This document shows positions 3,890 through 19,296 of a DNA stretch of 49,050 bases, piece after piece. Source of the DNA: Parcubacteria group bacterium GW2011_GWB1_40_14 (GTDB lineage Bacteria; Patescibacteriota; Minisyncoccia; Terrybacterales; GWB1-40-14). The stretch's first letter is position 1; every line of letters starts with the position of its first letter. The translations under genes were made by a program, and so were the position numbers. The stretch lies in assembly GCA_000996085.1 (NCBI GenBank), contig LBYG01000008.1:1-49050 (forward strand). Reading direction: 5' to 3'. The notes under the pieces were generated by a model. That model did not search any database. It worked only from the letters and a program-made list of their open reading frames with translations, and was not told the DNA's origin.

Positions 3890-3967
3890 TTCTAGAAAAC
3901 CTCTCTATGTTTTCAAAGTACAAACGTACTTTGTATAAAAATAGTCTATCATATAAAAGGAAATATG

Positions 3968-4973: not shown

Positions 4974-6204
4974 ATGATCTTCAAAAAAGCTTCTGAAAAA
5001 ATTAATACATTCATACCCAAAGAAGCATTGTTGCTTTCCGGACTTATTTTTTTAAGTTATGTTCTTGGTCTTGTGCGCGACAGAATATTTGCGCGTACTT
5101 TCGGTTTAAGTTCCGCGCTTGATGCGTACAACGCGGCATTTATTTTACCCGAACTGTTCATTGATGTTCTAATAAGCGGGGCTTTGGGCGCCGCGTTCAT
5201 TCCGCTCTTTGTAGAAATTTACAAAAAAGATAAAGCGCGCAGCGAAGAATTTGCAAACACCACCATAACCTCTGCTGTGCTTGTAATGATAATAGGCGCC
5301 GCAGTATTAATATTGTTCGCGCCCAAAACCGTTTCTTTAATAGTTCCCGGATTTAACGCTGAAAACCAGTTGCTCTATTCAAATCTGCTCAGAATAATGG
5401 CGCTATCCCCTATAATTTTCGCGTTATCTATATCTTTGGGAGAAATTCTGGTGGCAAAAAGACAATTTTTATTCTATGGCCTGGCGCCGATACTTTATAA
5501 CTTCGGGATAATTTTGGGCACAATAATATTAAGCCCAAAGATAGGAATTTTTGGCGCGGCCATAGGCAGTATTTTGGGAGCATTGCTTTATCTTGCCATA
5601 CGGCTATTGGGAATATTTAGATCCGATTTCTCACTTAAGCCGGCATTTAATATAAAAATGCCGGAATTCCGCAAACTTTTGGTTCTTATGTTGCCCAAAA
5701 TGTTTGGCCATCCGATAGAGCCTCTTACGTTTTTGTTCTTTACCGCAGCAGCCAGTAGAATAGGCAGCGGGGACATAAGCGCGATAAGTTTCGGCCGCAA
5801 TTTCCAAAGCGTCCCCGTGGCGCTAATTGGCATAGCTTTTTCTATAGTTGTTTTTCCTCGAAAGGTTTTTTGGAGGAGGAGAATTTACCCAAGAAGCCAT
5901 ACAAAGAACTTCGCTGATACTTGGATTCTTTTCTATTTCGATACCGCTTGAAAGCTTATCGCATCTTTTAAGCCGTGCTTTTTTTGCCACCAAAAACACT
6001 TTCATCCCGGTTTGTGCCGCTTTTGCGGGATTGCTTACTATAGTAATAACAACAAATTATCTCTCGCCTACTTTGGGCATAATTGCTTTGCCGATAGCTT
6101 TTGCCGCAGGAACCGCAACAAAAATATTATTGCTTGGCGCAATATTGCCTCTACGCGTACGTTTTATACGTAAAAACTCTTTACTTGACGTAGCATCGAT
6201 ATAA
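4974..6204 (+). pseudogene. murJ: Lipid II flippase MurJ/MviN, split by a frameshifting internal deletion near 5858 (real or assembly error)
   Basis: LGLVRDRIFARTFG, DAYNAAFILPE, GALGAAFIPLF in one frame; LLSRAFFATKNTFIP in a second frame. About 405 aa in total, short for MurJ. Confidence 0.8.
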
Positions 6205-10594: not shown

Positions 10595-10901
10595 AAGCAA
10601 AAAGGATTTGCCGAGTGTATGCCTGAAGATGCTTTTGTTTAAATCGCTTAATCCGCAAGCTTAAATTTAAGCTCCTGGCGGTAACGCGAGTCTAAAAACA
10701 GTTTCAGGGAGGCTTTAACAAATACTCTATTATTTTATCATATATTATAATCAAAATCCGCCGTTTATACCTCTTTTTTATAAATTAACCTTCTATTATA
10801 TACTACGAAACCCGCCCAAAAAGGTAACAAAAATACCGCCCAGCCCTACCCAGCTCTAATTCTTAATTAGGGCTGGGTTAGAGCTGGACGGTTAAATATT
10901 T

Positions 10902-11435
10902 TTATTCCTGTCCTGATCTGACATCAACCTGATACTGCTCACGTAAACTATCTGCCATCTCCTTTGTCCCGCCGATAATTTCAATATCGTAGGGATAAGC
11001 GTACTGCGCACGATACCCTTGTTCATGCTCAATTACATTGCCCCACAAAGAAACCTTACCGATAGCGAAACACTCGCGCGGTTTTTCCTGAGCGCTGCCT
11101 TTTATATGAGAAAAAGTAACCTGCCACTGAACAGGAAACTTTCTCTCGCGCTGCATATATTTGCTCGCGTCTTCTTCGCTCTTAAAGGCGTGAATGCCGC
11201 ATTCGCAATAAAAATACGGGGCTGCATGAGGCACTTCAATAATTTTACTGTCAGAATTGAACCAACAAAGCCTGTCGGCAGCCATGGCAATACGATAGGG
11301 CCATGCTACATACATATAAAGCGGGGAAATTAAAATATATTTTCCATAAACCCAATGCTCATTTTCTATGGCGGTTATAACCCGCCAAACTTTCCAGGCA
11401 TAAATAGGCTCAACAAGGATCTGTTTATCGGACAT
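10902..11435 (-). CDS. CxCGIHA / GxVSLWG-E-GYRAxYAYP family protein, paralog 2 (possible ART-like fold)
   Basis: Motifs PIYAWKVW, HAAPYFYCECGIHAF, GKVSLWGNVIEHEQGYRAQYAYP. SD GGAG precedes MSDKQ. Confidence 0.8.
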   Translation of the reverse strand: MSDKQILVEPIYAWKVWRVITAIENEHWVYGKYILISPLYMYVAWPYRIAMAADRLCWFNSDSKIIEVPHAAPYFYCECGIHAFKSEEDASKYMQRERKFPVQWQVTFSHIKGSAQEKPRECFAIGKVSLWGNVIEHEQGYRAQYAYPYDIEIIGGTKEMADSLREQYQVDVRSGQE

Positions 11436-11508
11436 TAATAAATCTCCGATTTTTAAAAGACGTTGCCATAAGCATATCAAAACCGGAACAAAAACAAAAG
11501 CCCATCAA

Positions 11509-12093
11509 TTAGTGATGAGCTTGTGATAATTCTATTCTTGTATCAACCTGATACTGCTCACGTAACGAATCGGCGATACGACGATCGTCAGCAAGTACTG
11601 TTAGATCATAGGGGTAAGCATATTCGGCGCGATAGCCATCTTCACCTTCAATAATTTCGCCCCATAAAGAAACTTGGCCAAAAACCGTGCAACCCATTAT
11701 GCGATCGGGCAAAATACCTCGCTCGTTAGCACTAACAACAGTCCAAGGCTTAGCTGGATCCATTTTCATCCCAGTAAAATAATTAAATAGCTTTTCTTTT
11801 GTACGCAGGGCATATATACCGCACCTGCAATAAATATCAGGAACTTGATGTTTAAAACCAATCAAATGAACCGATACTTGCCTATTGCTGGATTTCGCCA
11901 GAGATGAGACAAGCGCGAAACAATCAGCTTTCAACGTTATACGCGGTTTCCATTCTGTATGTTTGCTAACAGCTCTTAAACGATAAACAATATCATCGGA
12001 GAATAAGTTAAGTACGGCAACGGCTTGCCACATACGCCAGGCAATTATCGGCTCTTCTGAAACAACGTGCGGCAATACCTTGGATTTGCTCAT
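11509..12093 (-). CDS. CxCGIYA family protein, paralog 1
   Basis: PIIAWRMW, HQVPDIYCRCGIYAL, GQVSLWGEIIEGEDGYRAEYAYP. ATGA overlap with the upstream peptide. Confidence 0.8.
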   Translation of the reverse strand: MSKSKVLPHVVSEEPIIAWRMWQAVAVLNLFSDDIVYRLRAVSKHTEWKPRITLKADCFALVSSLAKSSNRQVSVHLIGFKHQVPDIYCRCGIYALRTKEKLFNYFTGMKMDPAKPWTVVSANERGILPDRIMGCTVFGQVSLWGEIIEGEDGYRAEYAYPYDLTVLADDRRIADSLREQYQVDTRIELSQAHH

Positions 12094-12287
12094 GCTTGCC
12101 CTGAGCCGTTCGGCACTGAGCTCACGGCCGAAGTGCTAGTCGAATGGGCCGGAACTTTCTCAGGCACTTTAGCCGGAGGTGTGGGCTCGCGCACCGGGGC
12201 GGGATCGGGAAACTTGGGTAGAGGGGTCGGAATCGGCACAGATTTAGGGTTAACAGTAATACGTCTTTTGGGCTTACCTATTTCCAT
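12090..12287 (-). CDS. 65-aa Pro-rich peptide (MEIGKPKRRITVNPKSVPIPTP...)
   Basis: SD GGAG 7 nt upstream, 4-nt overlap with the next gene, GC-rich coding island. Confidence 0.75.
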   Translation of the reverse strand: MEIGKPKRRITVNPKSVPIPTPLPKFPDPAPVREPTPPAKVPEKVPAHSTSTSAVSSVPNGSGQA

Positions 12288-12392
12288 CTTATTGCTCCAT
12301 ATATTTTCAATTTTCTGCTTATGTTTTTTATAAACCAAATTGCTCAAAAAAACAATAGAAAAAACGACTTACTTAAAGTAAGTCGTTACCTT

Positions 12393-12767
12393 TTAACTAA
12401 AACTTTCGTTGAGAAGTTCATTTATTACCTTCTTTAATTCTTCGGTTCTGTTTTCTTTTACCAGTTCAAGAGGACTTTTACCAAAAAATACTTCTTTGGG
12501 TTCACGCAACCATTTTCGTATATAACGCTGTTCTACAATTTCAGAAAGTAAACGGCAAACGTCGTAAAGATAATCTATACGTACGCGCGCTTCAACCACC
12601 AAAACGTTATATCTCTCGCAATTGCGAATTGCGCGGACAGACACGCCGGCGGCAGAAGAAATATCGCGATAGCTAAGGAAACATTCCCGACGCAAAGCAG
12701 AAATTTGCTTACGGGCTTCATGCGTTTGCGGCAATTCTATGGACAATTTGCACACCCTCCGCCACAA
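12393..12767 (-). CDS. Xre/MbcA/ParS-type antitoxin (HTH plus toxin-binding domain)
   Basis: HTH LSYRDISSAAGVSVRAIRN; C-terminal WLREPKEVFFGKSPLELV. Confidence 0.75.
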   Translation of the reverse strand: MWRRVCKLSIELPQTHEARKQISALRRECFLSYRDISSAAGVSVRAIRNCERYNVLVVEARVRIDYLYDVCRLLSEIVEQRYIRKWLREPKEVFFGKSPLELVKENRTEELKKVINELLNESFS

Positions 12768-12979
12768 CAGGACTCTCTTTCGAGTTCGGCCTTGTGCTTA
12801 GCTTCATGTCGTACAATATGACCAAAACATACAACAGCATGTCCGCAACTGGCTTCTCTGCACATTTGGGTCATGCCCTCGGTAGGACAACCCAATTCCT
12901 CACATTCGACACATTCGGCAGGCTCAGTGCAGGCACATTCGGCAGGCTCAGTGCAGGCACATTCGGCAGGCTCAGACAT
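12737..12979 (-). CDS. Small Cys/His-rich protein with EPAECACT repeats
   Basis: SD AAGGAG, 14 Cys, 24-nt tandem repeat 12910-12976. Confidence 0.6.
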   Translation of the reverse strand: MSEPAECACTEPAECACTEPAECVECEELGCPTEGMTQMCREASCGHAVVCFGHIVRHEAKHKAELERESCCGGGCANCP

Positions 12980-13102
12980 TTATTTCTCCTTTAAAAGAAC
13001 CTTTTTTATTTATACAGCAACGCCTCTAAATTATCAAATAAAAAACACCCAGCTCTAATTAAGAATTAGGGCTGGGTATTTTTATAAATTTCAATTTAAC
13101 GA

Positions 13103-14301: not shown

Positions 14302-14673
14302 TTATAAATAGGCTCCGTCAGCATAGGCAGAAGCGGCTTCATAAACCAGAGATGAATTATCTTCTCGTAAAAGTTCAAGAGGCGTTCTGCCTTTAAGATA
14401 TCTCAACTTAGCATGAAACCATTCGTTGATTCCCTGGTGGCTTAAAGATTGATGCAATTGCACCATTATTATGTCGCGTATTCTGATAAGTCTTTCTCTT
14501 ATTGTGCCGGTCAAAAGCGTACCAAGCGTGCGAAACTCTTTATGCTCATAAACTGAAACGCTTATCATTTCAGCAACTTCTTTTTCTGTAAATTTATAGT
14601 CCTCTATAAAAGAATCTATAATACTTAAAGCCGTTCTGGGACTTTCTAATTTGCAACAACTGTCAGACGCCAT
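14302..14673 (-). CDS. Xre/MbcA/ParS-type antitoxin
   Basis: HTH-like FTEKEVAEMISVS; C-terminal WFHAKLRYLKGRTPLELL...AASAYADGAYL; SD GGAGG. Confidence 0.75.
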   Translation of the reverse strand: MASDSCCKLESPRTALSIIDSFIEDYKFTEKEVAEMISVSVYEHKEFRTLGTLLTGTIRERLIRIRDIIMVQLHQSLSHQGINEWFHAKLRYLKGRTPLELLREDNSSLVYEAASAYADGAYL

Positions 14674-14726: not shown

Positions 14727-15236
14727 TCATATTCTTACTTTAAACATTGCTTTTGAAAAATCACTGTCGTTTTTGGCCTGCTTTATGTAATCGATAGGAG
14801 CCACATCATAGAGATAATCGTTCGGTGCTTTAAGCCATCTGATAATATCTCTCCGCTTAAAAGAAAGGCTGTTTGGAATGGGCTTGCTGAGATAAAAAAC
14901 AACCTCTTCAAGCATTTTTAGGCGTTTAAGATATGAATATGCTGAATCATAATCGGATTCTTTGCCGACAAAACCTTGGACGGTTTTAATACCGAACCCA
15001 TATTCGGGAAGTCTGGCTTTAAGGAAATCCTCGATCGCTTCTGCTACATATACCTTAAACGAATGGTACAAAGCAGATCTTTCAAAACTCTCTCCACCCG
15101 GAGTAGCTATAATTCCGCCCGTAACCTGCTCAAAAACACAATCACAATGTTCACAGCCGTAAAGCGAACCGCGTCCGCCGCAGCTGCCGCCTTCAAGAAA
15201 AACAACTGCGCCGCCGCACAGACTGCACTTTTCCAT
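14727..15236 (-). CDS. Zn-ribbon protein fused to an MbcA/ParS-like C-terminal domain
   Basis: CSLC...CEHC at the N-terminus; WLKAPNDYLYDVAPIDYI at the C-terminus; SD GGAG. Confidence 0.65.
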   Translation of the reverse strand: MEKCSLCGGAVVFLEGGSCGGRGSLYGCEHCDCVFEQVTGGIIATPGGESFERSALYHSFKVYVAEAIEDFLKARLPEYGFGIKTVQGFVGKESDYDSAYSYLKRLKMLEEVVFYLSKPIPNSLSFKRRDIIRWLKAPNDYLYDVAPIDYIKQAKNDSDFSKAMFKVRI

Positions 15237-15388
15237 TTTTATCTCTCCTTCAATACTGCTCAGGACAAGCTTTTTCAAATAACTTATTTTCTTATACCAG
15301 TCCTGTGGATAAAATCAATCTATAAATAAAAACAACAAAAAAACTTCTATGTAGAGAAGTTTTTTATTAAATCCAATGTTCGAAATTT

Positions 15389-16944: not shown

Positions 16945-18476
<1,532 letters not shown>

Positions 18477-19177: not shown

Positions 19178-19296
19178 GCCCAGCTCTAATTAAGAATTAG
19201 GGCTGGGCAAGTCCACCCTAATACACTTGACGAAAACAATAATTAATGTAATTATAATAATAACTTTTCTTCGAAAACCTTGTGCGTGAGGCAGCG

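Follow-up and report, generated by a model that had tools for sequence, protein, structure and literature searches.

A widespread, translationally coupled pair of a short peptide and a protein of predicted ADP-ribosyltransferase-like fold, with two protein paralogs in a small-genome groundwater bacterium

Several described two-gene systems combine a protein of the ADP-ribosyltransferase (ART) fold with an antitoxin. In DarTG, the DNA ADP-ribosyltransferase DarT is partnered by a macrodomain antitoxin encoded downstream, and in MbcT-MbcA, ParT-ParS and RES-Xre an ART-fold toxin is encoded after its antitoxin. The fold also occurs in the RNA 2'-phosphotransferase Tpt1/KptA, an enzyme that works through Arg and His residues and not through a catalytic Glu, and in BC2332 (2aua) and CC0527 (2jqn), small stand-alone ART-like proteins of unknown function. 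Here we describe a module in a 49,050-nucleotide stretch of DNA (the window; positions 1 to 49,050 of contig LBYG01000008.1) from Parcubacteria group bacterium GW2011_GWB1_40_14, a groundwater bacterium with a small genome of the Candidate Phyla Radiation (CPR)-like kind. The module consists of a gene for a 65-amino acid peptide followed by two paralogous protein genes, here called A and B, and would be a duplicated copy of a two-gene unit, a peptide and a protein of ART-like fold, that is widespread and unnamed. Firmly established are the widespread, translationally coupled peptide-protein pair, its conserved Cys/His site and a reproducible ART-like fold signal. We tentatively favour the interpretation that the unit is a peptide-gated effector carried by mobile elements and phages, its function being unproven.

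The module is encoded on the minus strand. Its peptide gene (12090-12287) encodes MEIGKPKRRITVNP followed by a proline-rich tail, and has GGAG 8 nt 5' of its ATG. The TGA stop of this gene overlaps the ATG start of paralog A (11509-12093, 194 amino acids) in the sequence ATGA, through which paralog A is translationally coupled to the peptide gene. Paralog B (10902-11435) contains the same domain and has no peptide gene of its own; its longest open reading frame (ORF) begins with a TTG at 11480, but because homologs begin at MSDKQ or MPDKQ, the start was set at the ATG that gives 177 amino acids. The two proteins are 35% identical over 177 columns (BLASTP, E 8e-38), far beyond chance, and have the motifs AW(R/K)xW, HxxPxxxCxCGI(Y/H)A and GxVSLWGxxIExExGYRAxYAYP in common; the variable residue of the CGI(Y/H)A strand is H in paralog B, which has Q at position 157 (paralog A numbering is used throughout). 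A 24-nt identity (10923-10946 = 11542-11565), which opens a 36-nt stretch that is 86% identical, codes for the common C-terminal LREQYQVD. An earlier note on this DNA, made from the letters alone, had described the 65-residue peptide, the ATGA overlap, the two paralogs, their motifs and the 24-nt identity, and all of these features are present.

The window peptide opens with M-E-I-G-x-P-x-R-R-I-T-V-x-P-x-x-x-P and continues into its variable Pro-rich tail. It is the product of a real coding gene whose amino acid sequence is under purifying selection, because its codon differences from the corresponding gene in a second lineage (locus L086) are mostly synonymous: 22 of 47 codons carry a synonymous change and 9 a non-synonymous one, the other 16 being identical. 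This second lineage (L086 and L085) keeps the peptide gene upstream of A and B, and its paralog A is 59-61% identical to that of the window. Paralogs A and B are the sole copies in the window's genome (0.94 Mb, 92.8% complete). A genome of the same genus (G001) has no copy of the module, a search of 60 relatives gave a single weak match to the family (E 3e-4), and in three relatives a DNA search recovered the 16S rRNA and helicase genes that flank the module here, but not the module itself.

Searches of Pfam, NCBIfam, PHROGs and PADLOC returned nothing meaningful for the peptide, paralog A or paralog B. The three proteins drew only weak chance matches, such as Tetrabrachion at E 0.0026, far below cut-off, and PHROGs matched none of 57 family members and none of 45 family proteins from viruses. 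The module proteins thus stand outside the family libraries but are not orphans. An exhaustive HMMER search over 1.84 billion representatives recovered the protein domain in 1642 cluster representatives at E<=1e-3 and in 55 at E<=1e-10; a word-indexed search recovered only 10 close relatives. Many of the HMMER matches are longer proteins, and some, actinobacterial forms, carry C-terminal HTH_3/HTH_31 arrays. Source annotations read 'hypothetical protein', bar one fused form labelled as an XRE-family regulator. The peptide profile matched 877 clusters at E<=1e-3, with lengths of 40-110 amino acids and none with a Pfam domain. Genome scans yielded 80 loci, mostly in soil metagenome-assembled genomes (MAGs) of Actinomycetota (Gaiellales, Thermoleophilia) and Acidobacteriota, and 65 IMG/VR viral contigs carry the family, which extends to the present groundwater lineage. 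Structural relatives in BFVD (Foldseek) are an uncultured Caudovirales protein (E 1.4e-9) and a protein of Streptomyces phage BRock (E 3.4e-4), both uncharacterised, and tblastn of two query proteins against 50,697 phage records gave no match. Full-text literature searches turned up no account of either family, nor did a search by terms within PMC9503650, a survey of viral NAD+/ADP-ribose proteins whose supplementary lists could name it.

The peptide accompanies the protein as a conserved partner. Loci were located through the patterns G-(Y/W)-R-A-Q-Y-A-Y and V-S-L-W-G, which biases the sample toward proteins that keep those motifs. By a strict regular expression, 25 of 85 family genes have the peptide motif immediately before them, with divergent forms seen by eye in further loci. 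A hidden Markov model (HMM) of the first 24 columns of the peptide alignment, iterated once, had a direct upstream match in 53 of 82 genome and metagenome loci. On the viral contigs it matched in 36 of 65 loci, in each case in the same orientation as the protein gene, mostly upstream and in a few cases just downstream. Six-frame translations of the 85 sources searched contained no off-target match, the sole other matches being the true peptides of the window and of L085. In the combined search the motif adjoins the protein gene on the same strand, almost always just upstream, in 89 of 149 loci, and these pairs span Actinomycetota, Acidobacteriota, the CPR-like lineage and IMG/VR phage contigs. 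The survey of neighbourhoods for upstream peptides of the M(E/N/Q)IG.P.R.I.V.P type that the earlier note had proposed is therefore positive across phyla and phage contigs.

Coupling of the two genes is tight. Among 88 plus-strand pairs, 52 overlap by 4 nt as (A/G)TGA, and in a further 25 the start codon follows the first stop-codon base by 2-16 nt; of the remainder, 5 show an ambiguous longer overlap, 3 have the peptide at another position and 3 are separated by larger gaps. The pairs with larger gaps include L085 and L086, in which 105 nt with a terminator-like hairpin separate the peptide gene from paralog A. In L086 this is a GC-rich hairpin with a T-run (3896-3960) directly 3' of the peptide gene, resembling an intrinsic terminator; the window and the closely related locus L084 both have the ATGA overlap. 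The family motif of the peptide, M-x-I-G-x-P-x-(R/E)-x-I-x-V-x-P-x-x-x-P-(V/L)-P, occupies the first ~20 residues and is conserved across phyla, with G4, P6, P14 and P18 invariant in 24 aligned peptides. The tails are variable, rich in Pro and Glu or in Pro and Lys, and probably extended. The motif is found in 0 of 156 family proteins, so that no natural peptide-protein fusion was seen in this set. Twelve 'longer' peptide matches had been considered as fusions and were set aside: they are single-member clusters, and the 7 that were read look like frameshifted read-throughs or upstream read-ins.

Residue conservation in the protein was counted in 117 full-domain representatives. Three positions are invariant besides C91, namely C58, G92 and G145 (each 117/117), and nearly so are W22, W48, G153 and P161 (116 each), P85 (115), W144 and R155 (114 each) and Y181 (112), followed by W19 and Y160 (107 each). 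Position 20 is R in 111 and K in 5 sequences, and position 94 is Y in 62, W in 45 and H in 10. C58 and C91 together with H82 (98/117) and position 89 (C in 97 and H in 17, thus C or H in 114) form a plausible signature of a four-ligand zinc site, as the earlier note had suspected for these proteins; zinc binding is inferred here from conservation. The C...H...(C/H)-x-C arrangement would probably be a structural zinc site inserted in the ART-like fold.

The fold itself was addressed by structure prediction. The AlphaFold2 models have a pLDDT of 82.6 and a pTM of 0.75 for paralog A (10 sequences), and a pLDDT of 87.7 and a pTM of 0.83 for paralog B (57 sequences). Each model was compared with 48,161 PDB representatives by an aligner independent of Foldseek, and the top 50 rows were classed by title. 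Paralog A is best matched by Tpt1 (7yw4; Z 6.2, rmsd 3.5, 103 residues aligned), followed by DarT1 (8baq, Z 5.4), DarT of M. tuberculosis (7yk3, Z 5.2), Thermus DarT (7omv, Z 5.0) and BC2332 (2aua, Z 5.0), with LT, MbcT, ParT, PARPs, pertussis toxin, pierisin, scabin and others further down. Paralog B is best matched by BC2332 (Z 5.7, rmsd 4.0, 96 aligned), for which PMC3024214 reports a match to the catalytic domain of diphtheria toxin, then by Thermus DarT (Z 5.3) and other DarT proteins (Z 4.9-5.0); the rest of its list resembles that of paralog A. By title, at least 38 of the 50 rows for paralog A and at least 34 of the 50 for paralog B are ART, PARP, DarT, Tpt1 or RES proteins, while 8 and 9, respectively, are ambiguous and 4 and 7 unrelated. 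We call the fold ART-like, with moderate confidence, because two independent match lists are dominated by ART proteins, and not on the strength of any single score. At the level of sequence, the family profile had 0 matches to PDB sequences at E<=1. A scan for DarT (PF14487) gave 0 of 301 genomes of the class and was uninformative, since control genomes also lacked a signal.

Binding of the peptide by the protein, which the earlier note had proposed as one of two roles for it, gains support from complex prediction. Paralog A (65-row alignment) was modelled with peptide residues 1-47 (24-row alignment), and the runs scored 0.73, 0.73 and 0.74, against 0.00 for the best of three controls. A mark of 0.73 is reached by 58 of 80 solved complexes and by 2 of 110 mismatched pairs, counts that apply only roughly here, since the prediction used alignments built for this analysis. 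The runs agree in at least 80% of contacts, with a partner pLDDT of 59-64. Peptide residues 9-12 (R-I-T-V) are predicted to pair between protein residues 143-149 and 9-16, with further contacts to residues 51-53, 87, 94, 96, 105, 150-155, 160, 162 and 181-183. The predicted peptide interface is the most conserved surface of the protein.

These observations can be joined into the following working scheme. The first gene would supply a peptide of 40-65 amino acids, with ~20 conserved N-terminal residues and a variable tail, and the second, translationally coupled to it, an ART-like domain of ~150-190 amino acids with a C...H...(C/H)-x-C insert. The peptide motif would add a β-strand between the N-terminal strand of the protein and its S-L-W-G-x-V-I-E strand, and the bound peptide would cover Y94, W144, E149-E151, R155, Y160 and Y181. 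It would then be a partner dedicated to filling and gating the functional groove, a form of antitoxin-like control, and not a substrate. The module would be an accessory unit of mobile elements and phages, and we infer that its target is probably related to nucleic acids. Type II toxin-antitoxin systems likewise consist of two small genes that are translated together, the one for the partner leading, and are patchily spread with mobile elements. A still more specific proposal, which we regard as doubtful, is that the protein is a zinc-stabilised, Glu-less ART-fold enzyme that modifies DNA or RNA by DarT-like or Tpt1-like chemistry in phage replication or anti-phage conflict, with the peptide as a plug that switches it off or on and the Pro-rich tail as a sensor or tether.

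A number of findings count against a peptide-gated effector of ART-like fold. The best Z scores, 6.2 for A and 5.7 for B, lie below the aligner's level for a distinctive match, and Foldseek against the PDB gave no match at E<=1e-3 for either model, its top rows being kinesins and tail-tube proteins at E ~0.1-0.3. No ART family was found in Pfam at E<=1, nor in NCBIfam or PADLOC, and when the family alignment of 65 sequences was compared by hhalign with 10 actinobacterial DarT sequences, the probability was 0.09% with 3 columns aligned. An ART-like fold, as proposed in the earlier note, recurs in the structure lists of both paralogs and finds no counterpart in sequence relationships. No acidic residue is conserved in the protein, and because of this enzymatic activity is itself uncertain. 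The binding of peptide to protein is a prediction and not a measurement. A peptide went undetected in 60 of the 149 loci, though some of these hold divergent peptides visible by eye, and the groove residues are equally conserved there; the idea that such loci have a degenerate groove was rejected on the same count. The peptide has no DNA-binding domain in Pfam, NCBIfam or PHROGs, unlike most type II antitoxins, and across phyla its motif is conserved to a degree that is unusual in antitoxins. Finally, the fixed position that the pair holds between der and glpF or dak genes in one group looks vertically inherited rather than selfish, and fusions to DNA polymerase A and to HTH arrays are odd partners for a toxin.

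A non-enzymatic alternative has a real though lesser chance of being correct. In this account peptide and protein form a heterodimer that assists in replicating or transcribing DNA, for example as an early-to-late regulator of a phage or as an adaptor of the replisome. The ART-like domain would be a scaffold that binds the peptide, or a regulatory domain, and the Pro-rich tail a rigid spacer or docking arm. No third gene is conserved across loci, and upstream ORFs cluster only in close lineages (e.g. der, GSDH). In Gaiellales and Thermoleophilia MAGs (L001-L017 and related loci) the pair has a fixed place between der (EngA GTPase) and MIP/glpF, followed by dak genes; one protein cluster at this position has 531 members. 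Other loci have small serine recombinases (resolvases) and MazE/PIN (VapBC-like) pairs nearby. A census of 62 ORFs in 18 of the 65 viral loci found, among others, AAA_25/DnaB-like proteins, topoisomerase IB, GIY-YIG, UDG, PD-(D/E)XK, HNH, IstB, Dam, PIF1, integrase and resolvase, with UvrD, DNA polymerase A and QueC directly downstream (QueC in 2 of the 18 loci sampled). In an acidobacterial MAG (L078, 3977-6172) the family domain is fused N-terminally to a family A DNA polymerase domain in a protein of 731 amino acids, with a peptide gene just upstream and a resolvase nearby.

The replication and DNA-metabolism neighbours in viruses (DnaB-like, UvrD, DNA_pol_A, UDG, PIF1, IstB), the polymerase fusion, the multiple HTH_3/HTH_31 fusions of actinobacterial forms, one of them named an XRE-family regulator by its source, and the fixed place beside der in Gaiellales all speak for a heterodimer of this kind, as do the lack of a conserved catalytic-type acidic residue and the coincidence of the most conserved surface with the predicted peptide interface. 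The tight pairing, the patchy and mobile-linked distribution and the duplication in a 0.94-Mb genome are, by contrast, more typical of conflict modules, and the stand-alone forms have no DNA-binding domain. To our knowledge, ART-fold proteins without an enzymatic role are also uncommon.

At the other extreme, A and B could be active NAD+-using ART toxins of the DarT, ParT or MbcT type, neutralised by the peptide, by an MbcA-like antitoxin or by both, which we consider unlikely. The structure matches for both models are dominated by ART proteins, R20 lies on the first strand, position 94 is aromatic, and both paralogs have E-x-E before G-Y-R. When residues are placed on the ART site by the order of secondary-structure elements, however, neither an H-Y-E nor an R-S-E triad with a conserved catalytic Glu is found: R20 is conserved and position 94 aromatic, and there is no conserved Glu. 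Of the 117 representatives, 91 have E149 and 77 have E151, and residue 157 is variable (Q in 67, E in 33, S in 9); in the 145 loci sampled E149 and E151 each occur in ~45%, with Q at position 157 in 103 loci and E in 29. E157 of paralog A is itself replaced by Q in the 93%-identical ortholog of L084. Without a conserved Glu there is no support for classical ART catalysis, and the protein is probably not a Glu-dependent ADP-ribosyltransferase of the classical type. The late Glu on which the earlier note had relied is thus not a family feature, and of its PARP-like GIY motif the spacing to a second Tyr holds in the close subfamily only: a Tyr 11 residues after the Tyr of GI(Y/H)A, considered as a signal of an H-Y-E site, was rejected for the family, with Y105 in 26 of 117. 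The hhalign comparison with DarT likewise runs against toxins of this type.

One argument for such a toxin is the gene directly upstream of the module, at 12393-12767 on the minus strand, which encodes 124 amino acids and matches PF09722 below that family's cut-off (E 8.6e-4). Five copies from the lineage all do the same, and a profile of the five matches MbcA Rv1990c (6fkg_C) over residues 22-120 at E 1.3e-7, which by sequence comparison makes the product a true homolog of the MbcA/ParS/Xre-type antitoxins. Two such genes occur in the window's genome, in which a RES-domain toxin was looked for and not found (best E 0.1, located elsewhere), a situation suggestive of an ART-like partner. The gene lies directly upstream of the module in the window and in L084, and ~1 kb upstream with other genes between in L086; no other locus among those searched has an MbcA-like gene near the module. 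A terminator-like hairpin (12363-12387, minus strand; found by a consensus scan only) also separates it from the peptide gene. Because of this hairpin, the intervening genes in L086 and the lack of such a neighbour outside the lineage, we hold the link of the MbcA-like gene to the module to be lineage-specific; it is unproven and may not be functional.

The earlier note had alternatively cast the peptide as the substrate of the protein, comparable to a ribosomally synthesised and post-translationally modified peptide (RiPP). In such an arrangement, or in another kind of protein modification, the conserved N-terminus would be a leader held by the enzyme and the variable Pro/Glu tail the modified core. 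This is quite improbable. The pattern of conserved leader and variable core next to the protein gene would be expected of such a substrate, the leader is predicted to bind by strand addition, as many RiPP enzymes hold their leaders, and Glu and Asp of the tail would be chemically plausible acceptors of ADP-ribose. Yet no known RiPP enzyme family, protease, transporter/exporter or tailoring gene is conserved nearby, the tails are without the richness in Cys, Ser or Thr that is usual in RiPP cores, and no second conserved surface of the protein was identified for acting on a core, its conserved residues falling in the leader interface. That the upstream ORF is a translational leader without a role for the free peptide, for instance through proline-dependent ribosome pausing, is the least probable account and can hardly be entertained, since the tight stop-start overlap, the Pro-rich tail and the hairpin directly after the peptide gene in L086 are outweighed by conservation that resides in the N-terminus and not in the Pro-rich part near the stop, by a confident and specific complex prediction and by purifying selection on the amino acid sequence.

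Several other features of the window lie around the module. A second terminator-like hairpin, also from the consensus scan only, lies between A and B and overlaps the stop codon of paralog A (11498-11522, minus strand). A 31-nt palindrome, ACCCAGCTCTAATTnnnAATTAGGGCTGGGT, occurs at 10848-10878, 13047-13077 and 19179-19207 (6 strand-matches against 0.01 expected), and its first two copies bracket a block made up of the module, the MbcA-like gene and a Cys-rich ORF. The same palindrome, perhaps a REP-like element or bidirectional terminator, is dispersed over several contigs of the same-genus genome G001. The Cys-rich ORF (12737-12979, minus strand; 80 amino acids) overlaps with its end the start of the MbcA-like gene and contains three tandem 24-nt repeats (12910-12981) coding for EPAECACT units; its ortholog in L084 has four units and 88 amino acids, so that repeat number varies, and the product may be a metal-binding protein. 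The second MbcA/ParS-like gene (14302-14673, minus strand; 123 amino acids) has no recognisable toxin beside it. Directly upstream of it is an ORF of 183 amino acids (14727-15278, minus strand) with zinc-ribbon-like CxxC pairs, whose C-terminal end also resembles the C-terminal motif of the antitoxins.

The module is situated ~5 kb downstream of a complete bacterial 16S rRNA gene (16946-18476, minus strand; 1261 bits, model positions 1-1533), which stands alone, with no 23S or 5S rRNA detected in the window. At some distance, a MurJ-like ORF (4974-5951, plus strand; 325 amino acids) covers only profile positions 1-260 of 451 and is overlapped and followed by another ORF (5848-6204); the gene may be split or frameshifted.

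If the peptide-gated effector is correct, a large two-gene family has been overlooked, which comprises ~1600 protein clusters (at 50% identity) and ~900 peptide clusters (at 90% identity) and reaches from soil Actinomycetota and Acidobacteriota to groundwater bacteria of very small genome size and numerous phage contigs. The control of ART-fold proteins would then include a new type of partner, a very short peptide that contributes a β-strand, and phage replication modules or defence would gain a candidate for a new activity. Were the protein non-catalytic, the 20-residue motif and its groove would still make a compact and easily testable recognition pair.

Among the described systems, DarTG comes close in several respects. 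The DarT structures are matched by A and B, respectively, at Z 5.4 and 5.0 (8baq), 5.2 and 4.9 (7yk3) and 5.0 and 5.3 (7omv), the proteins are of similar size, and the accessory, mobile distribution and DNA-related phage neighbourhood of the module are comparable. In contrast to DarT, to which it has no sequence or profile similarity, the module protein lacks a conserved catalytic Glu and has an inserted Cys/His site, and its partner is a peptide of 40-65 amino acids encoded upstream in place of a macrodomain antitoxin encoded downstream. Tpt1 is the top match of paralog A (7yw4) and is matched by paralog B at Z 4.5, and its Arg/His chemistry would fit the conserved R20 and R155 of the module protein. 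Unlike Tpt1, the module protein has no Pfam match and no N-terminal winged-helix domain, and the zinc-type insert and the peptide partner are features of the module that Tpt1 lacks.

MbcT-MbcA, ParT-ParS and RES-Xre resemble the module in gene order and in the MbcA-like gene upstream of it in the window and L084, and MbcT and ParT are among the structure matches of the paralogs at Z 3.2-3.9. The differences are that A and B have no match to the RES domain (PF08808) and that the universal partner in the module is the peptide, the MbcA-like neighbour being confined to one lineage and placed behind a terminator-like hairpin. BC2332 and CC0527 are similar as small stand-alone proteins, the former being the best match of paralog B, and differ in having no sequence relation to the family by the PDB profile search; we know of no peptide partner or Cys/His site for either. 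The module would belong with systems in which an ART-fold protein has a proteinaceous partner, and would stand farther from all of them if its protein were non-catalytic.

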